Both the position numbers and the translations under genes were made by a program. This document shows, in pieces, positions 11,078 to 22,482 of a DNA stretch of 64,000 bases (positions are counted from its first letter, which is position 1; each line of letters starts with the position of its first letter). The notes under the pieces are model-generated. The model saw only the letters and a list, made by a program, of their open reading frames with translations, was not told the origin of the DNA and ran no database searches. The stretch is from Escherichia coli (GTDB taxonomy: Bacteria; Pseudomonadota; Gammaproteobacteria; Enterobacterales; Enterobacteriaceae). The stretch lies in assembly GCF_044324875.1 (NCBI RefSeq), contig NZ_CP172185.1; one strand, 5' to 3'.

Positions 11078-11798
11078 CAGGAAAAAAACAGACAGCGCAC
11101 AGCACAGTACATCACTGCTTCCACCGTCCGCAGGGCCATTCATGCGCGCCACAGAGGCGACAGGAGTACGCATCAGTGCCATACCGGTGGACGCCGACAC
11201 CCTGTGGTCGCCGGACCGCTGCCCTGCTCACCTCCTGCCCTACCTTGCATGGGCATGTTCCGTTGACCGCTGGGACCGCAACTGGCCGGAAGAGACCAGA
11301 CGACAGGTGATTGGCCAGTCCTGGAAGGTACACCGCCAGAAAGGAACGGTCAGCGCACTGAGGGAAACAGCCGCAGCATTCGGTTATGAGATGACCATCA
11401 GTGAATGGTGGGAGCATGGAGGGCAGCCGGGCACCTTTACTGTGACCATCGGGGCAGACACTCAGGGCATCGGCCCTGAAACATGGCTGGAGATGGAGGA
11501 TCTGCTCAATGATGCACGTCCGGTTTCACGTCATATGACGGGGCTTTATGCCGCCCTGCGTTCTGGCGTGACGGTTTACTGCGCTGCGGGAGCAGGCTGT
11601 GATGAGCTTGTAACCATTCACCAGAAAGCTCGCGCCTCCCTGGCGGGCCAGGTGACCATCATCGCAGCAGGAGACACACACACAACCGACAGTGTGACCG
11701 TACTGCCGGGGGTTCCGTCAGGTATGTACGGGGAGATCTGTATCCGTACCGGCGCAGGTATATTCGTGAGTGAGATTGTGGAGGTTATCACCTTATGA
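11070..11798 (+). CDS. I: Tail/baseplate protein, P2 gpI-like
   Basis: Start set at ATG 11070 (MSDRKK...) overlapping J 3' end; directly precedes tail fibre gene. Confidence 0.7.
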   Translation: MSDRKKTDSAQHSTSLLPPSAGPFMRATEATGVRISAIPVDADTLWSPDRCPAHLLPYLAWACSVDRWDRNWPEETRRQVIGQSWKVHRQKGTVSALRETAAAFGYEMTISEWWEHGGQPGTFTVTIGADTQGIGPETWLEMEDLLNDARPVSRHMTGLYAALRSGVTVYCAAGAGCDELVTIHQKARASLAGQVTIIAAGDTHTTDSVTVLPGVPSGMYGEICIRTGAGIFVSEIVEVITL

Positions 11799-12910
11799 AC
11801 ACCGATTTTTATTCCGTTCTGACGGATGCCGGGCTGAAAAAACTGGCGGCAGCCGCAGCATCAGGGAATCAGATGAAAATCACCCATATGGCTGTAGGCG
11901 ACGGAAACGGAAAAGCCGTAACACCCGGCAGGGCCGACACCAGGCTTGTCAGGGAAAAATACCGTGCGCCACTGAACAGTCTGGAAGAAGACACAGAGAG
12001 ACCGGGGCATGTTATCGCAGAAATGGTGATACCTGAAAAACAGGGAGGGTGGTGGATCAGAGAATTCGGATTATTCGACGAAGACGGCGGAATGATTGTT
12101 ACAGGCAAATTTCCTGACACATGGAAGCCTGCACCTGGTCAGGGTGGAGCACGACTGATATCAGTGAAAGTGGTTGTGGCAGTATCACATACAGAAAACA
12201 TTGTGCTGAAAGTGGATCCTTCTGTTGTCATGGCAACCCGGGAATGGGTGAACACAAAAGCAGAGCAGTTAAAGAAAGAGCTCAGACAACCTGATGCAAC
12301 CACCAAAACAAAAGGCATTGTTCAGCTTAGCAGTGACATCAACAGCACCTCTGAAACGCAGGCTGCCACCCCCGGAGCGGTAAAAGCCGTGAATGATCGT
12401 GTGGACGGAAAACAGGACGCGGATCCCACGCTCACATCTCTGTCCGGGAAAAATGCACAGCAACTGAGGCAGCTTCTGGGGCTGGGCACGCTTGCCACCC
12501 TGAACAGGGGCACCGGTTCAGGGAATGTGCCGGACATGAGTCACTTTGCGAGTAAAAAAGCAGACTACGGTTACCAGTGTTTTCCTGGCGGCATAATGAT
12601 CCAGTGGCTGCGGATCCCCTCAGACCACACAGGAAGAGCTGTCAGTCAGGAAGCCCGGGTGGCACTAAGCGGCGTGCGACTGTTTTCAGTGGAGGGTAAC
12701 TGGAACGGTAATAACATGATTAAGACCCTGGCAAACTACCAGTGGCCGAGAGTTTTCGGGGCAATTTATGCGACCGTTGCAACCAGGAATCACGGATCTG
12801 CATGGCGAGTATATCCGGTGTCCGCGAACAAGGATGTGCGTGTCGTATCCATTGCCTGGGCGGGAGAAGGTACAGATGACACTTATGTGGTTGGGGTGGG
12901 AAGAGTATGA
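11795..12910 (+). CDS. H: Tail fibre protein, P2 gpH-like N-terminus with short divergent C-terminal domain
   Basis: N-terminus ...LKKLAAAAASGNQMKITHMAVGDGNG... and internal QLSSDINSTSETQAATPGAVKAVND match the recalled conserved P2 H regions; only 371 aa. Confidence 0.75.
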   Translation: MNTDFYSVLTDAGLKKLAAAAASGNQMKITHMAVGDGNGKAVTPGRADTRLVREKYRAPLNSLEEDTERPGHVIAEMVIPEKQGGWWIREFGLFDEDGGMIVTGKFPDTWKPAPGQGGARLISVKVVVAVSHTENIVLKVDPSVVMATREWVNTKAEQLKKELRQPDATTKTKGIVQLSSDINSTSETQAATPGAVKAVNDRVDGKQDADPTLTSLSGKNAQQLRQLLGLGTLATLNRGTGSGNVPDMSHFASKKADYGYQCFPGGIMIQWLRIPSDHTGRAVSQEARVALSGVRLFSVEGNWNGNNMIKTLANYQWPRVFGAIYATVATRNHGSAWRVYPVSANKDVRVVSIAWAGEGTDDTYVVGVGRV

Positions 12911-13353
12911 AAATGATGTGGTCGCCGTCTGTGGGCGGTTTTTTTGGTGAAGACAGCAGCCATATACCGGAAGATGCGGTGGAGGTTGATGAATCGATGT
13001 GGAGCAGGATGATGGAGGGACAACTTGAGGGAAAAATTATCGTTAACGGCCCTGACGACCTGCCTGTTCTGGAAGAGCGTCCGGGACCGGGGCCAGAAGA
13101 ATACCGGCATCAGGCTCGCCTTGAGCTTGCTGACCTTCGCCGACAGGGGCTGGAACACATAGAGTCGATGCGCTGGCGTGACAAAGCGGTCATGAACAGG
13201 CTGGGAGAAGAGGAGAAGCAGGAGTATAACGCCTGGCTTGACTGGCTCGACGCGCTTGACAGTACGGACATATCAGGGGCACCGGATGTGGTGTGGCCGG
13301 TGATGCCCGTCACGGTGGTTCCTGAACATCCTCAGAAAAAATTGCCGGAGTGA
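12907..13353 (+). CDS. G: Tail fibre assembly chaperone, P2 gpG-like
   Basis: 148-aa ORF overlapping H stop (ATGA); position after tail fibre gene. Confidence 0.65.
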   Translation: MKMMWSPSVGGFFGEDSSHIPEDAVEVDESMWSRMMEGQLEGKIIVNGPDDLPVLEERPGPGPEEYRHQARLELADLRRQGLEHIESMRWRDKAVMNRLGEEEKQEYNAWLDWLDALDSTDISGAPDVVWPVMPVTVVPEHPQKKLPE

Positions 13354-13360
13354 ACAGCCT

Positions 13361-13386
13361 CCGGCCTGAGACTGCACTCAGGCCGG
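13361..13386. terminator. GC-rich hairpin between convergent G and U genes (candidate terminator, weak U-tract)
   Basis: Perfect 10-bp inverted repeat ccggcctgag/ctcaggccgg with 6-nt loop; followed by aaattctgtt on plus strand. Confidence 0.4.
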
Positions 13387-13394
13387 AAATTCTG

Positions 13395-13841
13395 TTATCT
13401 GCCAGCATTGCGGATGATACCCGAAAGCATATCAGACACCGACGGCATCATTCGCTCCCGCAAATCCTCATCACAGCGTTCCATACTGACAGTGAACTCA
13501 ATTTTTTTGGCCTTACCGTGGCGGTCAAGTTCGCTTCGCGTTGTGCGGACAGCCGTTATCACATACATGCCGTATATCTGCCCCACACCGTCAATCAGCG
13601 GCCATGGGCGGCCAGTGTAAGCCTGCGTCGTTAAAAGGCTGAGGGAAACCTCACCGCCGGTAATTTCGGGATAAAGCACACCGGACAACGTGATCTGGTC
13701 GTCACCCGCCCCGATATACTGCCAGCTGGCCGAACGATTGATGCGTTCATTTTTAACGTGGCGCCAGGTTTTATTATGTTGCAGTTGTTGATGAGGCAGC
13801 GTACGCAACTCAAAAACAAACATGCCGTAAATCATCATCAT
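13395..13841 (-). CDS. U: Tail protein, P2 gpU-like
   Basis: 148-aa ORF downstream of tape measure on minus strand. Confidence 0.75.
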   Translation of the reverse strand: MMMIYGMFVFELRTLPHQQLQHNKTWRHVKNERINRSASWQYIGAGDDQITLSGVLYPEITGGEVSLSLLTTQAYTGRPWPLIDGVGQIYGMYVITAVRTTRSELDRHGKAKKIEFTVSMERCDEDLRERMMPSVSDMLSGIIRNAGR

Positions 13842-13852
13842 GCGAGGTACTC

Positions 13853-16800
13853 CTAATCTCTGTCACGGAAACTACCGACTGTCTGGCGGATACGGCGTTC
13901 CATTTCCGCACGGACGGCATCACCCACCATTTTTGCCAGTTCGCGCGGGTTTTGCGTGTGAACATCATGCAGGTGAATATGCAGTTCGCCAGTTAATCCC
14001 CATGGTGCCGGATCACTCTGACGCGGTCGGGGCGATGCGGGGGATATGGGCTGGCGCACAGCCTCAACCACCGGACGGGATGTTGCCGTTACGACGGGTG
14101 TCATTACCGGCGCAATATTGCCGGACACTACCGGTTTAATTACCGGGGAGAGCGTCGGTATAACATCGCCAGCCATAACCGGTTTGATCGCTGGCGAAAT
14201 AACCGGAGCAACAGACTCAGCCATGACGGAACTGACAGGCTGAGGCGCTCTCACTATGCCAGCATCGATAACCAGCATGAGCTCGCGTACTGCCTCAAGG
14301 ACAGGACGGGATATTGCCGCCATCACTGGTGTCATTAGCGGGGAGAACGTCGGCATGACATCGTGAGTCATAACCGGTTTGATCACCGGCGAAACCACCG
14401 GCGTAATATTACCGGACAGTACCGGACGGACGACCGGAGGAATAACCGGCACATTATTCACGGACACCACCGGCTTCACGACCGGCGACACGTTCGCCGT
14501 GGTGGATATCAGCGGCGAAACACTGACAGGCGGTGGCGCTGGCAGCGGTGGCAACGAAGGCACACTGACCGACGGCACCTGCGGCAGTCTGACAGGTGGC
14601 TCACTGACACTACCCGGTAACAGGGAAGCTGCGCGGTTAAAGCGTTCCTCCTTCCACTCACCACGAACGGCCAGCGCTTCCGGCAGGTTTTTAAAGATAA
14701 TATCGCCGGGACCAGTGCGTTTTTTCGCCTGTTTCGCCTCATCCAGCAGGCCACCGGTGTTATCGACGATTTTATTCAGGCGACGCATGGTGCCGGTATT
14801 CTCCCCCGTCAGCGGAGCAGTTGCTGCAGGTGCAGGTACTGGCGGCTTTTTGTCTTTGTCATTTTGCGGCGGATTAATGACATTAACATCCGCCAGGAGC
14901 ATGGCGGCTTTCTCGTTCAGCAGCTCCTTCTGCTTCAGCTCTTCCGCCTTTTTCCGGGCGCGCTCAACCGCCGACGGAATCAGCCCGAGTTTTTCCAGCA
15001 CCCGGGTTAATGAGTCAATCAGCAGCGTAACCGGACCGGTCACCAGATTGCTGATAAACTCCCCGACCTTCTGCCCGAACGTCCGCCCGGCTTCCGTGCA
15101 CTTGTCCAGCTCATCCTTTGTTGTGCTTACCGGCGCGAACAAATCCACGAACCACTGCCACACACGCCCGATTGTCTGCCCGACATACTCAAACAATGGT
15201 CCCAGTGGTGCCACAGCCTCGCGCAGTGGCGTAAGCCCCTGCCACAGGCCGGACAAGAACCCGCCCACGACAGCCTTCAGCTGGTCCCAGTGCCGCCAGA
15301 TAAGCACTGCCGCACCGACCAGTGTCGCCACCACAAGGCCCACCGGACTTAACAGAAAACCCAGCGCCCCGCCAAGTGCGCCCACCGCACCACTCACCAT
15401 CCCCCACAGTGCGGGCAGACCTGACAGTCTGAGCGCCAGTATTCCGATACCGCGCCCCAGTGAAATCAGTGCGCCGCCAGGTGAAGTGAACGCAGCCAGC
15501 AGACCACCACGCAGCGCGCCAAGTCCCGCCTGCACACCACGAAGCCGCCCCGCAACTACGCCCAGCAGTGCAGCAAACCGTCCGGCACCGGAGGTGATAC
15601 CGACAAACAGCACGCGCCAGCCACCGATACCGCCCAGCGGACCACCGAGTACGCCGCGCAGCTGCGTCAGTAACGGCAGCGCACGACCGAGGCCGGATGT
15701 GCCGGTCAGCAGGGCAAACCCAAGACGCAGTTTTGCCAGCGGCCCCATCAACACACCAGTGGCAAGTGACAGCGCCCCCATGGCCGCAACCGCAGCCAGC
15801 AGTGCACCACCGGCAATCAGCAGTTGTTTTGTCAGTTCAGGGTGCGCCTGGGCCAGCGCGGTGACTTTCGCAATAACCCGGGTGAACGACTGCGTGACAG
15901 AACGCAGCGGCCCGTCAACGAGGTCAGCGACACGGATACGCAGCCCTTCCCATGCGCTGTTCAGTGATTTCAGGTCGCCGTCCAGGTTGTCCGCCATGAT
16001 TCTGGCGTTTTCTTCCAGTTCGCCGTTCGCTGCCTGAATCTCACGCGTCAGGCGCGGCAGGTTTTTTTCGCCTGCCTGTTCAACCAGGCTCATCAGGGAG
16101 ACATACGCCTCCTGCCCGGCAATATCTGAAAAGAACGAGACTTTTGCCGCGTTACCGTATTTACGGGTGGCCTGATACAGCTCATACAGGATATCTTCCA
16201 TCGGGCGCATGTTCCCGTAAGCATCCTGCGTTTCCACGCCCAGCTGTTTCAGCGCCTTTGCTGCCGCTTTAGGCGGGTTCACAAGGCGGGACAGACTGGA
16301 GCGCAGCGCCGTACCAGCATCACTGCCACGTATCCCCATCGACCCAAGCAACCCGGTCATGGCTGCGGTCTGTTCAAGAGACAGACCGAGTGAGGCGGCG
16401 ACCGGTCCCGTATATTTCATCGTCTCACCAAGCCCGCGCAGGTCGGTATTGGTGCGGGTGAACGTTGCGGCCAGCGTGTCACCCACGCGGTTCATCTGGT
16501 CGGCAGACAACCCGAACTGCGTAAGGATATTTGAGCTGATATCGGCCGTCTGACCGAGGTCCATGCCGCTGGCCGTTGCCAGATTCAGCACGCCGGGAAG
16601 AGCCGCCTGTATCGCCTGCGGCGTGAACCCCGCCATGGCAAGGAACGCCTGACCGCTGGCAGCATCACCTGCGGTAAACTGCGTTTCGGAGCCGAGTTTA
16701 AGCGCCTGTTCGCGCAGCGCCTTAAACTGCGGACTGTTTTTGTCAATACGGGTCAGCGCCTGGACGCGCGACATCTCCTTACCAAAACTGACCGCCGGTT

Positions 16801-17431
16801 GCAGGAAACGCCCGGCCGCATAGCCACCTGCCGCTGCCGTGCCGACTGCCGTAAATCCACCCGCTTTCAGTTTTCCCGCCATCTCCTGAGCGCGGAAATA
16901 TTGCTGGCGTGCCTGCGTGACGCGTGCCAGAGTCTGCCGTTCACGTTCCAGCTGTTCGTTGTATTGCTGTGTTCGCCGTATGGCCTGTTGAATGGTGTTG
17001 TCACTGCCGGAAAGCGCAATACCGTGACGCCGCAGCTCACCACCCAGTTCGCGCATTCGCTGAACTTCACGCGCACGGACCTCATTGAGACGCTCAAGTT
17101 TGAGGCTCAAATCGTTCATCAGCTTTTTCTGTTTGTCAGACAGCACGGTTCCGGCGCGCTGAATTTGCTGAAGTGCGCTTAACTGGCGTTGTGCCCGGGC
17201 AATGCCGTTTCCGGCCTTGTTTGCAGCCTCGCGGGCGCGATCAAATGAACGGGCGTGGCGTTCCAGGTTTTTGATCGCACCCTGCGTTCTCTGTATGGAG
17301 TCGCCAAGCTGGCCCATCATGCGACGGGCGTTTTCGGTGGGACGGGTCAGCCTGTCAACAGCGCTGAAGGCGACCCGTATATCAAGCGTTTTCATGCTCT
17401 GCGTTCCCGCTGCGAAGGGCCGCCCGCTCAC
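13853..17431 (-). CDS. T: Tail tape measure protein, P2 gpT-like (1192 aa)
   Basis: Very long ORF; coiled-coil N-terminal part, Gly/Ala-rich hydrophobic central segment, Pro/Val-rich repetitive C-terminus; follows E/E' as in P2. Track start is GTG 17431 with SD GAGGTGG; alternative ATG at 17395. Confidence 0.85.
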   Translation of the reverse strand: MSGRPFAAGTQSMKTLDIRVAFSAVDRLTRPTENARRMMGQLGDSIQRTQGAIKNLERHARSFDRAREAANKAGNGIARAQRQLSALQQIQRAGTVLSDKQKKLMNDLSLKLERLNEVRAREVQRMRELGGELRRHGIALSGSDNTIQQAIRRTQQYNEQLERERQTLARVTQARQQYFRAQEMAGKLKAGGFTAVGTAAAGGYAAGRFLQPAVSFGKEMSRVQALTRIDKNSPQFKALREQALKLGSETQFTAGDAASGQAFLAMAGFTPQAIQAALPGVLNLATASGMDLGQTADISSNILTQFGLSADQMNRVGDTLAATFTRTNTDLRGLGETMKYTGPVAASLGLSLEQTAAMTGLLGSMGIRGSDAGTALRSSLSRLVNPPKAAAKALKQLGVETQDAYGNMRPMEDILYELYQATRKYGNAAKVSFFSDIAGQEAYVSLMSLVEQAGEKNLPRLTREIQAANGELEENARIMADNLDGDLKSLNSAWEGLRIRVADLVDGPLRSVTQSFTRVIAKVTALAQAHPELTKQLLIAGGALLAAVAAMGALSLATGVLMGPLAKLRLGFALLTGTSGLGRALPLLTQLRGVLGGPLGGIGGWRVLFVGITSGAGRFAALLGVVAGRLRGVQAGLGALRGGLLAAFTSPGGALISLGRGIGILALRLSGLPALWGMVSGAVGALGGALGFLLSPVGLVVATLVGAAVLIWRHWDQLKAVVGGFLSGLWQGLTPLREAVAPLGPLFEYVGQTIGRVWQWFVDLFAPVSTTKDELDKCTEAGRTFGQKVGEFISNLVTGPVTLLIDSLTRVLEKLGLIPSAVERARKKAEELKQKELLNEKAAMLLADVNVINPPQNDKDKKPPVPAPAATAPLTGENTGTMRRLNKIVDNTGGLLDEAKQAKKRTGPGDIIFKNLPEALAVRGEWKEERFNRAASLLPGSVSEPPVRLPQVPSVSVPSLPPLPAPPPVSVSPLISTTANVSPVVKPVVSVNNVPVIPPVVRPVLSGNITPVVSPVIKPVMTHDVMPTFSPLMTPVMAAISRPVLEAVRELMLVIDAGIVRAPQPVSSVMAESVAPVISPAIKPVMAGDVIPTLSPVIKPVVSGNIAPVMTPVVTATSRPVVEAVRQPISPASPRPRQSDPAPWGLTGELHIHLHDVHTQNPRELAKMVGDAVRAEMERRIRQTVGSFRDRD
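14060..14500. repeat. Imperfect tandem duplication (~230-bp unit) inside the 3' part of the tape measure gene
   Basis: gcctcaaccaccggacgggatgttgccg...gtgtcattaccgg (14061-) vs gcctcaaggacaggacgggatattgccg...gtgtcattagcgg (14292-); encodes repeated ...PVIKPVM..DV.PT.SP...SRPV.EAVR... units. Confidence 0.6.
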
Positions 17432-17908
17432 GCCAGGCGACCACCTCGCCGGGATCCATCAGGAAGATTTCAGCGGGAGACCAGTTGAAAATAACGGCGA
17501 TATCCGCCACAAAGTCTTCAATATGCTCAAAGGGCACGACGGTTATCAGCCTGCCGTCGCCGCCACGCTCTTCCCGCCAGAGTCCTGACCGGCCAAAAAA
17601 TTAACCGCCACCCCGCACAGCTGAATAAAATCAGCGGACCCCATGCGCTTAAGCAGAACCTCGTCCAGTCGCGGCGAAGTGACGCGCGGGAGTAACTCAA
17701 ACATCGCGTCCGTTTTCATGTTCAGCACGTCAAGCAGTGACAGCCCGCGCAGTGAACCGGCCTGCTGTACAGCAGGCGTGATTTCCACATACGTGATTTT
17801 TTTGTTACCGAGCACAAGGGGCGTTTTCAGCGTCACGCCGCGCTCACTGGTCACGTCCGCCGCATCAGCACCGTCAGTAACAGGGGCAACAACCGGATTT
17901 TCTTTCAT
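17382..17908 (-). CDS. E+E' fusion product from programmed -1 ribosomal frameshift (predicted ~175 aa)
   Basis: After slipping on T TTT TTG the -1 frame stays open for 70 codons (GRSGLWREERGGDGRLITVVPFEHIEDFVADIAVIFNWSPAEIFLMDPGEVVAWRERAALRSGNAEHENA) to TGA at 17382-17384, overlapping the start of T; triplet-by-triplet manual translation. Confidence 0.6.
17546..17908 (-). CDS. E: Tail assembly chaperone, P2 gpE-like (zero-frame product)
   Basis: 120-aa ORF ending ...VNFLAGQDSGGKSVAATAG; the NFL codons are AAT TTT TTG (slippery site). Confidence 0.75.
   Translation of the reverse strand: MKENPVVAPVTDGADAADVTSERGVTLKTPLVLGNKKITYVEITPAVQQAGSLRGLSLLDVLNMKTDAMFELLPRVTSPRLDEVLLKRMGSADFIQLCGVAVNFLAGQDSGGKSVAATAG
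17594..17602 (-). other. Slippery heptanucleotide T TTT TTG (codons AAT TTT TTG) for the E/E' -1 frameshift
   Basis: Plus strand ccaaaaaatt at 17593-17602; reverse complement AATTTTTTGG in the E reading frame. Confidence 0.65.
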
Positions 17909-17958: not shown

Positions 17959-18477
17959 TTAACCACCAAGACCAATCGCCGAGCGCACGCGGTCCGGGAA
18001 GACGCTTTTGCCGTCCTTGCGTTCGATGTGGTTCAGTAAATCAATCTCCAGCACCGGACGGTCGTTAATGCTGAGTTTGTAGTAGGTACTTTTGACCGCA
18101 TAGGTGTGAGACGTGACCTCACCCTGTTTGGCCTCCCCGGTATCAATTTCCGTCACGCGACCGCGAAGCTCAATCTCGTACAGGTCACTCTGTTCTTCAT
18201 CGTTGTAGTACTCACCGACAAAGCGCAGCAGCGTACCGTCAATCGTTCCGCCGTACTTGAGGAACAGTTCGCGGGTCGGCCCGCCCATGGTGAAACTCGC
18301 ATCCAGCGCGCCGTCATCCAGGCCAAGGTCGATATTTACTGCACCGGCCATACCACCACCGCGATAGGCTTCCGTTTTACGGGTCAGTTTGGGGGGCGTG
18401 AAGCCGGTCACCCTGCCAATCTGGTTCACCCCGTCAGTAAACAGCGTGAACACCCTGAGATTTTTTGGTACGGCCAT
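17959..18477 (-). CDS. FII: Tail tube protein, P2 gpFII-like
   Basis: 172-aa ORF downstream of sheath gene; size and context. Confidence 0.85.
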   Translation of the reverse strand: MAVPKNLRVFTLFTDGVNQIGRVTGFTPPKLTRKTEAYRGGGMAGAVNIDLGLDDGALDASFTMGGPTRELFLKYGGTIDGTLLRFVGEYYNDEEQSDLYEIELRGRVTEIDTGEAKQGEVTSHTYAVKSTYYKLSINDRPVLEIDLLNHIERKDGKSVFPDRVRSAIGLGG

Positions 18478-18779
18478 TAAGCACCTCCAAGCGTCGCAAA
18501 TGCAGGACCAAAGAATTCATCAGTAAACGTCTGGTAAAGTTCCATATCCTCAAGCGGCGGAACGGGCGTGTACTTGTAGCGGATACGCACGCGTCCCTGA
18601 CGAAGTTCCGTGGTGCTGTTATCCACCACGTCATACCAGCACTCCGCACCAACGAGACGTCCTGACGTAACCAGCGCATCCAGTTTTGCGCGAATTGCGC
18701 TTAACACGTCTTTCACATTAGCAGGGGTCAGCGGGGCATCAATCGTTTCAAACTGCGCTTCCGCAACAGAATCAGCCAG

Positions 18780-18786
18780 CACCTGA
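18780..18786. repeat. Target-site duplication CACCTGA (left copy) of the IS21-family element
   Basis: Identical 7-mer at 21426-21432; reconstructed FI reading frame needs exactly one copy. Confidence 0.7.
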
Positions 18787-18988
18787 TGCAAAATGGCATC
18801 TGAATCGATCGCAGTTTGGCATTCGAATCGATCATGATTTGGCATCCATCTCCGATCACAGTTTGGCATCACAATCGATCACGATTTGGCATGCTTCCGA
18901 TCATTGATTGGCATCCTGCCAGTCACTCCGGGAATTAACTCTTTTCACCACAGTCTCCATTGCCGTGTTTAAACCAGTGGAGACGTCA

Positions 18989-20554
18989 ATGTCCAGAAAG
19001 AGAAAATCCAGGAGCACTATGGAAACCTGTTTTAAGATCCTTCAGCTCAAGTTCGACAAGAAGCTGACTAACCGTTGTATCGGACTGACGTTACACATCA
19101 GCGCCTCAACCGTTTTTGAGGTTCTTGCCCGCTTCAAAGCCTCTTCTCTGTCATGGCCATTACCTGCTGATATATCCCATGACACGCTGGAGAAACTCAT
19201 TTTTCCGCCCAAAGACACCTTTGCATCAGAGCTTGTAATGCCTGACATGTTGTACTTCGATACGGAAATGAGAAAACCAGGTGTGACGCGGCAACTGTTG
19301 TGGATGGAATACAAGGCACAGGCGGGTAACAAAGCGATGGGATACTCGCACTTCTGCCGTTGCTACCGGGAGTGGAAAAAAACGCGACGTCTCTCCATGC
19401 GCCAGGAGCATCGTGCCGGCGAAAAGCTTTTTATCGACTTCTGTGGTCCTACGGTTCCTGTTATTAATCCGGACACCGGTGAGATACGCCGCGTGGCAAT
19501 CTTCGTGGCCGTAATGGGGGCGTCCAACTATACCTACGTTGAAGCGTGCGAAGGTCAGGACATGATGTCATGGTTAAATGCCCACAGCCGTTGCCTGACC
19601 TTCCTGGGCGGCGTACCGAAGCTGCTCATCCCCGATAACCTCAGAAGCGCAGTGAAAAAGGCCGATCGATATGAGCCTGTCATCAACGACAGTTATCAGG
19701 CACTGGCTGAGCACTATGGCACGGTTATCATCCCGGCCCGACCACGCAAACCTAAAGATAAACCAAAAGCAGAAAACGGCGTCCTCATCGTTGAACGATG
19801 GCTTCTTGCCCGCATCCGTAATGAAACCTTCCACACGCTCAGGGCGCTGAATGCGCGCCTTAGGGAGTTACTGACAGACATGAATAACCGGCCAATGAAG
19901 GGGTACGGCAATCAAACCCGTGCAGAACGCTTCCGCATACTGGATGCGCCAGCACTCTCTCCGCTGCCTCTGGCACCTTATGAATACACGGAATACAAAG
20001 CTGTGAAGGTTGGCCCTGACTACCACGTTGAATATGCCCGTCACTGGTACTCCGTTCCACACGAACTGGTCGGTCAGCGTCTGTCACTGAAGGCGGGGCA
20101 GTCGGTGGTACAGCTCTGGCACAAGGGGCAGTGTGTGGCGCAACATCCGCGCAGCACACATGAATATAAACACACAACCAATCCGCTTCACATGCCAGAG
20201 CGCCACCGGCAGCACGGGACATGGACACCGGAACGCCTGATCGAGCAGGGAAAACGTACGGGCCCGTCCACAGGCCGGGTGGTTGAATCCATGCTGAAGG
20301 CAAAACCCCATCCGGAACTGGCTTATCGTGCAGTTCTGGGGCTGCTGGCACTTCAGAAAAAATACGGCCCGGAACGGCTGGAAAAGGCCTGTTACGTTGC
20401 CCTGCACTATAACGCCCCTGACAGACGCTTTATCGACAATCTGCTGCGTCACCATCGGGAGAACCTGGAGCTTCCATTATCCCGCCAGGGCGAACAACAT
20501 CCGGCATATGCTTCAGAGCATGAAAACCTGCGTGGTCCGGGCTACTACCACTGA
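18989..20554 (+). CDS. istA: IS21-family transposase IstA
   Basis: Start set at ATG 18989 after GGAG (track begins at a TTG at 18908); N-terminal HTH-like segment, ~520 aa; immediately followed by istB. Confidence 0.8.
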   Translation: MSRKRKSRSTMETCFKILQLKFDKKLTNRCIGLTLHISASTVFEVLARFKASSLSWPLPADISHDTLEKLIFPPKDTFASELVMPDMLYFDTEMRKPGVTRQLLWMEYKAQAGNKAMGYSHFCRCYREWKKTRRLSMRQEHRAGEKLFIDFCGPTVPVINPDTGEIRRVAIFVAVMGASNYTYVEACEGQDMMSWLNAHSRCLTFLGGVPKLLIPDNLRSAVKKADRYEPVINDSYQALAEHYGTVIIPARPRKPKDKPKAENGVLIVERWLLARIRNETFHTLRALNARLRELLTDMNNRPMKGYGNQTRAERFRILDAPALSPLPLAPYEYTEYKAVKVGPDYHVEYARHWYSVPHELVGQRLSLKAGQSVVQLWHKGQCVAQHPRSTHEYKHTTNPLHMPERHRQHGTWTPERLIEQGKRTGPSTGRVVESMLKAKPHPELAYRAVLGLLALQKKYGPERLEKACYVALHYNAPDRRFIDNLLRHHRENLELPLSRQGEQHPAYASEHENLRGPGYYH

Positions 20555-20570
20555 CAGAAGGAACAACAGT

Positions 20571-21326
20571 ATGAGTGATAACCTGTTAAACAAACTGACC
20601 CAACTGAAACTCCCGGCGATGGCCGGGAGCCTGATACGGCAGCGGGAAACGCCTCAGACCTACGACGAACTGTCGTTCGAGGAAAGGCTGACGCTGCTGG
20701 TTGATGACGAGCTTCTGAGCAGGGAAAACAGCCGTGTGGCACGGTTGAGAAAAAATGCCGGCCTGAAATACCAGGCAACACCGGAAGGGCTGCGCTATCC
20801 GGCCTCAAGAGGTCTGCGGGCTGAACAGATGAGAGAACTGCTGAACGGCCACTACATAACCCACAGGAAAAACCTGCTGATAACCGGTCCGACAGGATGT
20901 GGCAAGAGCTGGATAGCCAATGCGCTGGGCGAACAGGCATGTCGACAGAAACACAGCGTCCGGTACTGTAGAACCGGGCGATTACTGGAACAACTGGCTC
21001 AGGGACGTGTTGATGGCAGCTGGCTGAAATATCTGAAACAGTTGCAAAAAATACAGGTTCTAATCCTGGACGATCTGGGGCTGGAACAGTTAAGTAACGC
21101 CCAGTGTAATGACCTTCTGGAGCTCATAGAGGATCGTTACGGACAAAGCAGCACGATAGTGGTAAGCCAGTTCCCGGTAGATAAATGGCATGGTCTGATG
21201 GAGAACCCAACAACAGCAGATGCCATCCTGGACAGACTGGTACATAACTCACACCGAGTGGTCCTTCAGGGAGAGTCACTGAGGAAAAATCCCCCGGTAG
21301 TGGAAAGCAGCGAAAAAACGCGTTAA
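20571..21326 (+). CDS. istB: IS21-family ATP-binding helper protein IstB
   Basis: Start set at ATG 20571 after AAGGAA; Walker A GPTGCGKS and Walker B ILDDLG motifs, 251 aa. Confidence 0.85.
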   Translation: MSDNLLNKLTQLKLPAMAGSLIRQRETPQTYDELSFEERLTLLVDDELLSRENSRVARLRKNAGLKYQATPEGLRYPASRGLRAEQMRELLNGHYITHRKNLLITGPTGCGKSWIANALGEQACRQKHSVRYCRTGRLLEQLAQGRVDGSWLKYLKQLQKIQVLILDDLGLEQLSNAQCNDLLELIEDRYGQSSTIVVSQFPVDKWHGLMENPTTADAILDRLVHNSHRVVLQGESLRKNPPVVESSEKTR

Positions 21327-21425
21327 AAAGCGGTAGAAAAAGTTAAGTTCCCGGTTGATCGAATGGATGCGAATCGCTGATCGGACTTCGATGCCAATCC
21401 GTGATCGAATAGAGCGGAATACGCA

Positions 21426-21432
21426 CACCTGA
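21426..21432. repeat. Target-site duplication CACCTGA (right copy) of the IS21-family element
   Basis: See left copy at 18780-18786. Confidence 0.7.
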
Positions 21433-22482
21433 GCGGTTCGCGTGTACACCTCAAAGATATACGCCTTCGTTTCCGGCGTACGGTTGCCCCAGAAGCGGAA
21501 ACCGTTACGGCGAATGATGGTGGTGATTTCCTTGTTGTTGAGATTGTTGGCATCGCTGTCTTCGGACTGAAGGGACCAGAACACCGGGCTGGAAATACCC
21601 AGCACATTTCTTACCGGCACGTTGGACAGCGATTTATGCCAGCCCTGTTCGTGGTCAATACGTGCACGTAAACCGCAGGCGTACGCCGCAGCCGGGAAGA
21701 CCTCATTAGCGCCGGATTTCGGGTTATGGGCGATGAAGTCAGGCCAGAGCAGCATAAGTTCGCGCTCGTTAAATCTGGCGCGGTAGCTGATTGCATCAGC
21801 GGGCTTCTTGCAGTTGTGACAGCCCGCGTAGACAAATGCGCGAAGTTTTTCTGCAATTACACACAGGGATTTTGTGACAGCTTCAGTATCCAGTCCGGGC
21901 GCTGCGATGATGCGCGGACGGTAACCGATGGCATCATCCTGTTCAGCTATCAGAAGTGCATACATACCGGTATAATTACCGTCGCCATCCGTGCCACCAA
22001 TGACATACTGGTCCTGCGTTTTGTGTGGGTATACAGGATGTGCATCTTCAGACTCATCAATACCAAAAAATGCCCTGTCTTCAGGATCCAGATGACCGAA
22101 TGATGTAACTCCTGTATCCGGGGCGCCCTGAGAACTGGCATCAGGAACGCGCACCACAATCACCTTCGTGCTCACCTGGTCGGCGACAGCCTTAAGCGAT
22201 TTGTAAAGCGTCCCCTTTGTGCCGGCCTTACCCAGCACATCACTGACGCGGGTCAGCAGTGTGGGTTTGTTCAGCGGGAACAGAGTTTCATCCGCGTCAT
22301 CTGCCGTAGCCACAATACCAATAACACTGGAATCCACATCATTAATGGCGGTGGCAAGGCCGGTACTTTCCCTTACGCGCGCACCATGAAAGCGTGTTTC
22401 ACTCATATGTTTCACCCTTGTCTGGCTGGTTGATTTTGCGTAATCATTACCCACGATGCCGCCGGTATCATCTCCTGCCCGT

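Follow-up and report, generated by a model that had tools for sequence, protein, structure and literature searches.

A Pro/Val-rich tandem-repeat linker of variable copy number in the tail tape measure gene of a P2-like Escherichia coli prophage

The tail tape measure gene of a P2-like prophage, located within the 64,000-nt stretch of an Escherichia coli genome that was analysed here (contig NZ_CP172185.1, hereafter the window), encodes a Pro/Val-rich linker ahead of its C-terminal domain that differs in length among related E. coli alleles by whole repeat blocks. The reading that we favour, and that we hold to be moderately probable as a whole, is that this linker has grown by hierarchical duplication, that its copy number is still changing and that it counts towards the ruler that sets the length of the tail.

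The gene (13853-17395, minus strand) is an intact tail tape measure gene, a homologue of gpT in a P88-related, P2-like prophage of the Peduoviridae in E. coli. Its ATG at 17395 is the RefSeq start for the identical allele, while a GTG further upstream, at 17431, gives a mechanical ORF of 1192 aa (13853..17431, minus strand). The identification as a tape measure, already made in an earlier note from the sequence, is borne out by the matches to TIGR01760 (293.4 bits versus a cut-off of 28.8), PF10145 (197.3 bits versus a cut-off of 33.2; aa 240-439 in the 1192-aa numbering) and phrog_28, "tail length tape measure protein" (E=9e-185). The closest isolated phages, P88 and its close relatives, share ~66-67% amino acid identity with this protein (67% in the case of P88). 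The gene order gpE/E', tape measure and gpU, all on the minus strand, is identical to that of P2 and P88, and the E / E+E' layout agrees with P2. The gpE ORF occupies 17546..17908 and the E' ORF 17382..17537 (both minus strand), the latter labelled by RefSeq as "GpE family phage tail protein" in an identical prophage. The parts of this region are the following:

17382..17908, minus strand: gpE and the E' frameshift-extension ORF (tape-measure chaperone pair), directly upstream of the tape measure gene
13853..17395, minus strand: tape measure gene, 1180 aa from the ATG, with the stop codon at 13853-13855
15788..16825, minus strand: conserved tape-measure core domain, aa 191-536 of the 1180-aa protein (TIGR01760 span)
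15296..15838, minus strand: Gly/Ala/Leu-rich hydrophobic central region, aa ~520-700, from the alignment with P88 and P0079-P0083
14648..14713, minus strand: conserved box GPGDIIFKNLPEALAVRGEWKE, aa 895-916, upstream edge of the variable linker
14489..14647, minus strand: Pro-rich leader of the linker, ERFNRAASLLPGSVSEPPVRLPQVPSVSVPSLPPLPAPPPVSVSPLISTTANV, aa 917-969
14393..14488, minus strand: two 16-aa (48-nt) Pro/Val units, SPVVKPVVSVNNVPVI and PPVVRPVLSGNITPVV, aa 970-1001, family D1
14285..14392, minus strand: copy A of the higher-order duplication, SPVIKPVMTHDVMPTF SPLMTPVMAAISRPVLEAVR, aa 1002-1037
14198..14284, minus strand: 29-aa spacer between copies A and B, ELMLVIDAGIVRAPQPVSSVMAESVAPVI
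14054..14197, minus strand: copy B, SPAIKPVMAGDVIPTL SPVIKPVVSGNIAPVM TPVVTATSRPVVEAVR, aa 1067-1114
13856..13990, minus strand: conserved C-terminal domain, aa 1136-1180 (GELHIHLHDV...GSFRDRD)
13395..13841, minus strand: gpU homologue (PF06995 Phage_P2_GpU, E=6.7e-41), directly downstream of the tape measure gene

The core domain is the sole part with a relative in a PDB sequence search (9g8s chain w), in which a short hydrophobic stretch also matched 9m8o and no match was found for the linker or the C-terminus. The hydrophobic central region is ~72 aa longer than in P88; since the extra stretch is common to phiT5282H and the other relatives of ~1000 aa, the difference is best explained by a deletion in P88 and not by an insertion in the window. 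The box at the upstream edge of the linker (GPGDIIFKNLP..GEWKE) is kept in P88, phiT5282H and P0079-P0098, and the C-terminal domain in P88, phiT5282H and the distant representatives. PHROG profiles 5431 and 17114 span only the last 96 aa of a 265-aa C-terminal fragment. In an AlphaFold2 prediction from the single C-terminal sequence (mean pLDDT 45.6), the C-terminal domain is a helix and the sole stretch of moderate confidence (pLDDT 67-84). By comparison with diffocin (PMC11329794), this domain is presumed to be the baseplate or spike anchor. An antisense ORF of 552 aa (14379-16037, plus strand) was discarded as a gene, having no Pfam match and a low-complexity translation, and is treated here as a by-product of the G+C-rich coding strand.

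The tape measure of the window is long for the family, albeit not unique: the family has a median length of 901 aa and 2 of its 78 representatives have at least 1180 aa. The earlier note had set it against P2 gpT, than which it is indeed much longer (1180 or 1192 versus 815 aa, the latter encoded by 2448 nt). However, P2 is the wrong yardstick: among isolated phages the two nearest, P88 and phiT5282H, reach 935 and 988 aa, respectively, and the closest family representatives 995-1043 aa. Measured against these nearest relatives (935-1043 aa), the clade-specific excess is ~140-245 aa and falls nearly all within the Pro-rich linker, which in P88 (51 aa) and in six nearer family representatives has 35-51 aa, and in the alleles of the E. 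coli clade 129, 206 (the window allele) and 271 aa. The duplication by itself accounts for 65-77 aa, and the remainder consists of the 53-aa Pro-rich leader, with no equivalent in P88 or phiT5282H in the alignment, and of further 16-aa units. The same note had reasoned that related functional phages with a tape measure of this length would speak against a peculiarity of this gene, an objection that does not arise since neither such a length nor such a segment is carried by any isolated phage of a 50,697-record collection. A tblastn search of those records with the Pro/Val segment alone gave no match, to which the BLAST low-complexity filter may have contributed.

The repetitive segment lies at the 3' end of the gene (~14054-14647) and encodes ~20% Pro and 21% Val, residues whose propensities favour an extended and stiff conformation. 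It is built of 16-aa (48-nt) units on which a higher-order, imperfect duplication is superimposed, with offsets of 195 and 231 nt, so that the 48-nt sub-period is nested within the longer one. The direct-repeat search recovered a 65-nt pair 231 nt apart (14046-14110 and 14277-14341, 78% identity), a 116-nt pair 195 nt apart (14130-14245 and 14325-14440, 72% identity) and a 32-nt core present in six copies with a spacing of 48 nt (family D1). Once a 12-codon indel is allowed for, copies A and B are 81.5% identical over 108 aligned nt; copy B has the 12 extra codons, and the spacer that follows copy A is without counterpart after copy B. At the protein level the self-comparison gave peaks at offsets of 65, 77, 81, 97, 113 and 16 aa, all within aa 980-1130. 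The best 20-aa self-diagonal scored 75, and none of 1000 composition-preserving shuffles matched it (mean 37.5, maximum 64); among nucleotide offsets from 6 to 400, the diagonals at 195 and 231 were the two best. The imperfect ~230-bp tandem repeat of Pro/Val-rich units described in the earlier note is thus confirmed by alignment, diagonals and shuffles alike, and the self-comparison proposed there as a check recovers its units. The copies have diverged and differ by an indel, and therefore "~230 bp" translates into two values, 231 nt in the 3' portion of the unit and 195 nt in its 5' portion. Tandem Repeats Finder reported neither the 195 nor the 231-nt period in the region, only short arrays of 6-12 nt (for example a 12-nt micro-array at 14463-14492), and missed the long one because of the 36-nt indel between the copies and their identity of ~72-85%.

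The strongest confirmation of the repeat comes from natural alleles that differ by exactly these units, apparently through a gain of 195 nt and a loss of 231 nt. Related E. coli alleles contain one, two or three copies (1103, 1173/1180 and 1238 aa, respectively). The two segments whose number changes are located in the window as follows:

14189..14383, minus strand: 195-nt (65-aa) unit, present twice and perfectly identical in strain Br_112_kylling
14087..14317, minus strand: 231-nt (77-aa) segment that the one-copy allele (DG341-1 type, 1103 aa) does not have

The allele of Br_112_kylling (NZ_CP182371) is the three-copy one (1238 aa), and we infer that the crossover behind its 195-nt gain took place at GATCAAACCGGTTATG, a stretch of 16 nt with which both copy A and copy B begin. 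A two-copy allele is carried by strain F374 (NZ_OY754371) and the one-copy allele of DG341-1 lies on NZ_CM144243. In the one-copy allele of DG341-1 the 5' part of copy A is fused to the 3' part of copy B, the join being a 6-nt identity (CGGCAA); such an exact A/B hybrid is as expected from a secondary deletion. Among the 30 records listed, spans of 3579 nt (n=2) and 3558 nt (n=6) correspond to two copies, 3753 nt (n=1) to three and 3348 nt (n=16) to one, and IMG/VR contributed one two-copy and one one-copy locus. A protein homologue search with the 320-aa C-terminus as query, which returned mostly partial proteins, found the Pro/Val array confined to two E. coli clusters (162 and 164 members), the other matches covering the flanks only. 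The ORF is uninterrupted in the four alleles (1180, 1238, 1103 and 1173 aa from the ATG) and they share the same C-terminus; the length changes of 195, 231 and 21 nt are all multiples of 3 and keep the C-terminal domain in frame. A phase-variable contingency locus, characterized by shifts of frame or promoter spacing, was considered and rejected because all the variants are in frame.

Divergence values give some indication of the timing. Synonymous divergence (dS) is 0.36 between copies A and B, 0.03-0.19 between alleles and 1.5 to P88, although the value between copies was obtained from only 36 codons, and gene conversion could have distorted it. As the copies differ more than the alleles do, the duplication probably predates the split of the alleles. 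The dN/dS of the whole gene (0.17-0.25) points to purifying selection on the gene as a whole, and between the copies it is 0.46. The linker of the E. coli clade has reached its 129-271 aa through hierarchical tandem duplication of Pro/Val-rich units, with the 16-aa units appearing first and the 65/77-aa block, built from such units, afterwards. The array is still changing its copy number, by events at the 16-nt and 6-nt identities between repeats that have given rise to the one-, two- and three-block alleles.

How these blocks could bear on the tail is suggested by other contractile systems. By analogy with them, the tape measure would be anchored by its C-terminal domain at the hub or spike of the baseplate, and its N-terminus would mark the stop of tube and sheath polymerisation. 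The linker would then occupy the baseplate-proximal stretch of the tube lumen. Since its prolines recur every 4-8 residues and many of its residues are beta-branched, the linker would be extended rather than coiled-coil. AlphaFold2 gave a pLDDT of 30-40 across the repeat, so the conformation of the segment is not predicted, and the "helices" drawn there at such values are not credible. For the same reason of proline spacing, the helical conversion of 1.5 A per residue cannot be assumed; each 65-77-aa block might add ~10 nm at that value and up to ~20-24 nm if fully extended, that is ~2.5-6 tube rings of ~4 nm. On balance, then, the linker would count towards the ruler, with the scales tipped only somewhat to that side, and a longer tail as a result of the repeat expansion, as the earlier note had proposed, is plausible.

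Experimental precedents are available for the principle. The tail of TP901-1 becomes proportionally shorter when its tape measure carries a deletion, whether within the repeat region or elsewhere (PMC5099701), the length of a contractile injection system can be tuned through an engineered tape measure (bioRxiv 10.64898/2026.05.27.728243), and the diffocin tape measure is a trimer that runs along the whole tube with its C-terminus (residues 795-817) on the spike (PMC11329794). The ruler experiments cited, engineered and natural, changed helical regions and not Pro-rich ones (PMC5099701; bioRxiv 10.64898/2026.05.27.728243). Closer to our case, one study gives tails of 137-140 nm for P88 and 130-131 nm for pro147 (PMC5285337), with tape measures of 935 and 815 aa, a difference whose direction fits the ruler principle. 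The slope, from single estimates without error bars, amounts to 0.5-0.8 A for each additional residue, less than in a helix (1.5 A), and therefore some of the extra residues may contribute little. Usable tail-length values for other Peduoviridae with long tape measures, such as phiT5282H, were not found in the literature.

This low slope is one of the arguments for a different role of the linker, namely a tolerated neutral spacer, a disordered array that is mere slack in the hub cavity or the tube lumen and whose copy number drifts by slippage while tail length and infectivity stay unchanged. We regard this as possible but rather doubtful. In its favour, a strong repeat signal is present in the 285 aa preceding the C-terminal 45 aa in 16 of the 78 family representatives, as opposed to 4 of 78 in the rest of the protein. 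In the gpT family, repeats appear to have expanded in this linker repeatedly, and the fact that distant members have tandem repeats there, Pro-rich or otherwise and unrelated in sequence, suggests a permissive site. The dN/dS between copies likewise indicates weaker constraint than in the whole gene (0.46 versus 0.17), and yet, being below 1, it still indicates some constraint on the peptide. Moreover, internal deletions of any kind in the tape measure altered tail length in the systems tested (PMC5099701), and a trimer of 206-aa chains would be a large mass for the hub cavity.

The linker could also act after ejection, as a rigid Pro-rich rod that extends across the periplasm or the peptidoglycan in the manner ascribed to the Pro-rich spacer of TonB, its copy number tuning the reach into the envelope instead of, or besides, tail length. 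The stiffness favoured by its composition agrees with such a role, a part in forming the DNA conduit has been proposed for tape measures, which are ejected (PMC5099701), and the segment would adjoin the cell-facing end of the protein if the arrangement of diffocin holds (PMC11329794). Nevertheless, Pfam, PHROG and PDB sequence searches found no recognisable domain or motif in the segment, and close relatives whose linker has only ~50 aa infect the same species, which makes this role unlikely.

Far less probable is that the repeat expanded, or that the gene is degenerating, after the prophage lost its function, as the earlier note had also entertained. The prophage of the window is certainly defective: an IS21-family element splits the sheath gene, for which reason no such tail can come from this prophage alone, and the segment from gpI to the tail fibre has been replaced with loss of the gpI C-terminus. 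In addition, RefSeq flags these tape measure genes as partial pseudogenes "missing C-terminus". Against this, a 100% identical allele is present in a prophage copy that does not have the IS21 insertion, and the two- and three-copy alleles sit in prophages whose sheath, tube, gpE, gpU, gpI and tail-fibre genes are unflagged. ORFs of 1103-1238 codons kept open by indels that are all multiples of 3, a dN/dS of 0.17-0.25 and copies that are more diverged than the alleles point in the same direction. Decay is thus largely refuted, and the RefSeq flag is most simply read as an annotation artefact, the ORF being intact in every allele examined. A mis-assembly, for which repeats are a classic source, has a negligible chance of explaining the duplication, given that IMG/VR and independent complete genomes from several countries show the same structure and that copies ~72-85% identical cannot be collapsed or expanded by an assembler.

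We come back to a linker that expands by duplication and probably contributes to the ruler. Since the evolution of tape measures by internal tandem duplication and loss is already established, the finding adds an example and not a principle: repeat variation of this sort is ordinary in the evolution of ruler genes, and it may make the tail longer. Its interest lies rather in the natural allelic series (1103, 1173/1180 and 1238 aa), in which a defined Pro/Val-rich block of 65/77 aa is nearly the sole difference; the E. coli prophages that carry these alleles have otherwise apparently intact tail genes. With such a series it could be tested cleanly whether, in a contractile tail, a non-helical segment beside the baseplate anchor acts as a ruler, and with what length per residue. 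On the practical side, the label of truncated pseudogene on intact genes would mislead assessments of prophage completeness. A more speculative and fairly improbable extension is that the array works as a natural length "dial", in which block recombination generates subpopulations with tails that differ by a few tube rings, or with a different ejected reach. If true, P2-like phages could adapt in this way to hosts with surface layers of different thickness, the independent Pro-rich expansions of distant gpT proteins would be convergent uses of one permissive ruler site, and a non-helical segment could act as a ruler with its own value of nm per residue.

Among known phages the nearest system is P88 (Xuanwuvirus, Peduoviridae; YP_009113088, 935 aa), which has the same flanking genes and conserved boxes and, at the same place, a single short Pro/Val module (SKPAPAINITPVVP...VPVVAASSRPVAEAIRSP). 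Unlike the element of the window, known only as a prophage, P88 is inducible and plaque-forming, with a measured tail of 137-140 nm (PMC5285337). Membership of our element in Xuanwuvirus is uncertain because of its divergence from P88 (67% amino acid identity, dS 1.5), as seen in the tape measure and the local gene order only. P2 gpT (NP_046782, 815 aa) shares the TIGR01760/PF10145 core, the position after E/E' and before U and the presumed role of ruler, but it is 365 aa shorter, has no Pro-rich linker and its C-terminal end aligns weakly.

Tape measures with a variable number of 11-aa, aromatic-marked repeats have been described (Belcaid et al., 2011; PMC3271669), and the repeats were proposed as facilitators of changes in tape measure length (PMC3271669; PMC5099701). 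The window resembles these proteins, among them that of TP901-1 (PMC3271669; Mahony et al., 2016, PMC5099701), in the tandem duplication and loss of units whose number varies among relatives. However, their units are of 11 (or 18) aa, marked by Trp/Phe, predicted to be helical and located in the body of the protein in non-contractile phages, whereas ours are of 16 aa plus a 65/77-aa block, Pro/Val-rich and placed before the C-terminal anchor in a contractile-tailed phage. The six 16-aa units contain a single Phe and no Trp, with a period of 16 aa and a super-period of 65/77 aa, so that the variation in unit number is shared with the 11-aa class and the Trp/Phe-marked 11-aa period is not.

Within the gpT family itself, the distant members P0226 (1319 aa), P0204 (1143 aa), P0125 (1094 aa) and P0161 (1096 aa) have tandem, often Pro-rich repeats at the same position, and it is these repeats before the C-terminal domain that make them the longest of the family. 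Their repeats (for example ELPAMRVAAEAPALPELGTLRAPG or PAPAPVPVAMAAPQLPVLP) are unrelated in sequence to the Pro/Val units, which suggests independent expansions. Beyond phages, the Pro-rich segment of TonB is thought to act as an extended, non-globular spacer across the periplasm; it differs from the linker of the window in having no sequence relationship to it, in being made of Glu-Pro and Lys-Pro instead of Pro-Val and in not belonging to a virion protein.

The window is a segment of an E. coli chromosome with a P2-like prophage. A repeat lies at the 3' end of the region's longest ORF, which runs over 13853..17431 on the minus strand and encodes 1192 aa when started at a GTG. The ATG at 17395, which RefSeq uses as the start of the identical allele (MKTLDIRV...), gives a protein of 1180 aa, and residues are numbered on this form unless stated otherwise. 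The product of 13853-17395 is the tail tape measure protein, scoring 293 bits against TIGR01760 (cut-off 28.8) and 197 bits against PF10145 (cut-off 33.2) and matching phrog_28 (E=9e-185). The gene order (tube gene, gpE, E', tape measure, gpU) is of the P2 type:

17959-18477: tube gene, upstream of the tape measure gene
17546-17908: gpE, upstream
17382-17537: E' extension ORF, upstream
13395-13841: gpU homologue (PF06995), downstream

The gene is 100% identical to that of strain 24A16CRGN010, and a related one is present in 36 of 5426 complete E. coli genomes. By tape measure, P88 and its relatives (genus Xuanwuvirus, ~67% amino-acid identity) come closest among isolated phages. Opposite the gene lies an antisense ORF of 552 aa (14379-16037, plus strand), whose low-complexity translation (Ser/Pro/Ala/Thr-rich) has no Pfam match and which is most likely a side effect of the high G+C content of the coding strand.

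The earlier note described an imperfect ~230-bp tandem repeat of Pro/Val-rich units, and this is borne out by periods of 195 and 231 nt, by shuffling and by natural alleles that differ by the same units. The nucleotide repeat search found a 65-nt direct repeat pair 231 nt apart (78% identity), a 116-nt pair 195 nt apart (72% identity) and a 32-nt core occurring six times with 48-nt spacing. A 12-codon indel accounts for the two periods, 195 nt on the 5' side of the unit and 231 nt on its 3' side. In a protein self-comparison, the strongest diagonals (offsets of 65, 77, 81, 97, 113 and 16 aa) all fall inside aa 980-1130 (1192-aa numbering). Pro and Val make up 20% and 21% of the 200-aa repeat region, against 3.7% and 5.7% of the remaining protein, and the repeat is more than an effect of this composition: the best 20-aa self-diagonal scores 75, a value reached by 0 of 1000 shuffles (mean 37.5, maximum 64). 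Tandem Repeats Finder did not report the long period (195/231 nt), as expected since the copies are so diverged and differ by an indel. Copies A and B, the two halves of the higher-order duplication, share 81.5% identity across 108 aligned nucleotides, and lie in a linker running from a conserved box to the C-terminal domain (all on the minus strand):

14648-14713: conserved box GPGDIIFKNLPEALAVRGEWKE, aa 895-916
14489-14647: Pro-rich leader of 53 aa, aa 917-969
14393-14488: two 16-aa units, SPVVKPVVSVNNVPVI and PPVVRPVLSGNITPVV, aa 970-1001
14285-14392: copy A, aa 1002-1037
14198-14284: 29-aa spacer, aa 1038-1066
14054-14197: copy B, with 12 extra codons, aa 1067-1114
13991-14053: Pro-rich tail of 21 aa, aa 1115-1135
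13856-13990: conserved C-terminal domain GELHIHLH...GSFRDRD, aa 1136-1180

A Gly/Ala/Leu-rich hydrophobic region (~15296-15838; aa 520-700) also varies in length, with a 7-aa (21-nt) deletion in the F374 and Br_112 alleles and a deletion of ~72 aa at the matching place in P88; its internal self-similarity is weak (offsets 35-132 aa, scores 35-36).

We have extracted the tape measure gene from four E. coli genomes and aligned it. The ORF is uninterrupted in all four alleles and their length differences are all multiples of three. Br_112_kylling has one more 195-nt copy, perfectly identical, giving a three-copy allele of 1238 aa; the ends of the extra copy coincide with a 16-nt identity, GATCAAACCGGTTATG, found at the start of both copy A and copy B. 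DG341-1 and about fifteen further records are missing 231 nt (one-copy allele, 1103 aa), and in what is left the 5' part of A runs into the 3' part of B across a 6-nt identity (CGGCAA). The two-copy alleles are of 3579 nt (the window, 24A16CRGN010 and CM2) or of 3558 nt (F374-type records, in which the hydrophobic region has also lost 21 nt). IMG/VR contains two loci only, one two-copy and one one-copy.

Spans of the tape measure gene among the 30 records listed; the 3579-, 3558-, 3753- and 3348-nt classes are represented by one aligned record apiece, and the other records were classed by span alone.
3753 nt: 1 record, three-copy
3579 nt: 2 records, two-copy
3558 nt: 6 records, two-copy
3348 nt: 16 records, one-copy (evidently including several same or clonal strains)
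3338 nt: 1 record, one-copy type by span, 10 nt shorter

This prophage type sits at differing chromosomal sites: it adjoins copA in 24A16CRGN010 and ihfA/pheT in Br_112_kylling, and in DG341-1 it lies near serS. Past the prophage end in the window (24969 onward), the match to the Br_112 locus runs on to 28079.

The tape measure gene is under purifying selection, with a whole-gene dN/dS of 0.17-0.25 (dS 0.03-0.19) when the window allele is compared with the others. Copies A and B differ with a dS of 0.36 and a dN/dS of 0.46, over 36 codons only, and the dS to P88 is 1.5. This order places the duplication after the split from P88-like phages and before the divergence of the E. coli alleles. The one-copy allele is precisely a hybrid of A and B, for which a secondary deletion, not the ancestral state, is the best reading.

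The unusual length noticed earlier stands, at 1180 (or 1192) aa against 815 aa in P2 gpT. Other phages have 815 aa (pro147), 935 aa (P88) and 988 aa (phiT5282H). A HMMER search run exhaustively over 1.84 billion representatives gave 78 full-length-looking proteins among the best 150 hits; their median is 901 aa and their maximum 1319 aa, and only two reach at least 1180 aa. The protein is thus long among its relatives without being unique: the linker is far longer than the 35-51 aa of P88 and six nearer representatives (129, 206 and 271 aa in the one-, two- and three-copy alleles), but the distant relative P0226 has 1319 aa. The nearest representatives (995-1043 aa) have the same extra hydrophobic stretch, which P88 is without, so that the clade-specific excess is essentially the linker. 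In the longest of the distant relatives (e.g., P0226, P0204, P0125 and P0161), the equivalent position is occupied by tandem repeats that are unrelated to these and often Pro-rich, and a strong repeat signal was found within the 285 aa preceding the C-terminal 45 aa in 16 of the 78 representatives, against 4 of 78 elsewhere in the protein. From these sequences, the segment before the C-terminal domain thus appears to be a recurrent site of repeat expansion in the gpT family. The distant members P0226, P0204, P0125, P0136, P0161 and P0174 all have striking tandem repeats, several being Pro-rich arrays before the C-terminal domain; P0174 (1424 aa) has many copies of a ~40-aa unit, 'W.SLKS.FTWSPLASIAGAF..A..WL.NLWP.INTTA'.

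The linker has a proline every 4-8 residues and is rich in Val and Ile. By residue propensities, such spacing and composition are incompatible with a continuous helix, and the linker is therefore not one continuous helix; AlphaFold2 was uninformative on it. Among contractile systems, the tape measure has been traced in full only in diffocin, where it forms a coiled-coil trimer along the tube, with the last ~23 residues on the spike and the N-terminus at the collar (PMC11329794). By analogy, the hub or spike would anchor the conserved 45-aa C-terminal domain, and the Pro/Val linker would lie in the tube lumen on the baseplate side. In TP901-1, internal deletions within or outside the repeats shorten the tail proportionally (PMC5099701), and in eCIS lengthening or shortening the helical region tunes particle length (bioRxiv 10.64898/2026.05.27.728243). 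On these grounds we judge it somewhat more probable that the linker counts towards the ruler than that it does not. Each block (65/77 aa) would then add ~10-12 nm at 1.5 A per residue, or ~20-24 nm if extended (~3 A per residue), and simple scaling at the 1.5-1.6 A per residue of P2 and P88 would predict a tail of ~177-190 nm for 1180 aa. The longer tail proposed in the earlier note is, on the ruler principle, plausible. The serious rival is a neutral spacer that leaves tail length unchanged. Measured in the same laboratory, P88 (935 aa) has a tail of 137-140 nm and pro147 (815 aa) one of 130-131 nm (PMC5285337); the direction fits a ruler, but the slope is only 0.5-0.8 A per extra residue, which keeps the neutral spacer in contention.

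The prophage in the window is defective. An IS21-family element with a 7-bp target duplication (CACCTGA at 18780-18786 and 21426-21432) splits the sheath gene into an N-terminal part (21276-22454) and a C-terminal part (18477-18872), and 11360-13416, which does not align with related prophages, stands in for the C-terminal part of gpI and the tail-fibre genes:

18787-21425: IS21-family element, 2639 bp, in the tail sheath gene
18908-20554: IstA (rve and Mu-transposase C-terminal domains)
20328-21326: IstB (PF01695)
11795-12910: short tail-fibre ORF, 371 aa, inside 11360-13416
12907-13353: assembly-like ORF, 148 aa, inside 11360-13416

Relatives have at this site a long tail-fibre gene (about 750 aa) and its assembly gene. 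On its right side, the 11360-13416 segment cuts off the 3' end of gpU (148 aa against 162 aa in relatives, with a differing C-terminus), and gpI of the identical prophage is flagged incomplete in RefSeq. The 24A16CRGN010 prophage is without the IS21-family element and otherwise 99.7% identical. The suggestion that the repeat expanded after inactivation is not supported, since the identical allele exists in this copy without the element, two- and three-copy alleles occur in prophages whose sheath, tube, gpE, gpU, gpI and tail-fibre genes, as annotated, carry no flag, and copies A and B arose before the alleles separated; the inactivation is unrelated to the repeat. RefSeq (PGAP) labels the tape measure a pseudogene in each of the four related genomes that were examined ('incomplete; partial in the middle of a contig; missing C-terminus'; loci L001 21348-23543, L002 9942-11717, L003 9117-11312 and L007 4747-6522), and in some others an additional 'hypothetical protein' lies beneath the match in the hit table. 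The label conflicts with the uninterrupted ORFs (1103-1238 aa when started at the ATG, all ending in a conserved C-terminus) and is most likely an annotation artefact, the reference alignment stopping short of the divergent C-terminal half.

Tape measures are known to evolve as internal units are tandemly duplicated or lost (Belcaid et al., 2011, PMC3271669; Mahony et al., 2016, PMC5099701), and in a limited literature collection we found no publication on this Pro/Val array. The main value of these genes is as a ready natural allelic series for asking whether a non-helical segment serves as a ruler. The tape measures of those studies are built of 11-aa units, predicted to be helical and marked by aromatic residues, whereas here a 16-aa Pro/Val unit and a 65/77-aa block are found, in the linker before the C-terminal anchor and in a contractile P2-like tail. 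These departures are matters of detail within an established kind of repeat-built tape measure.
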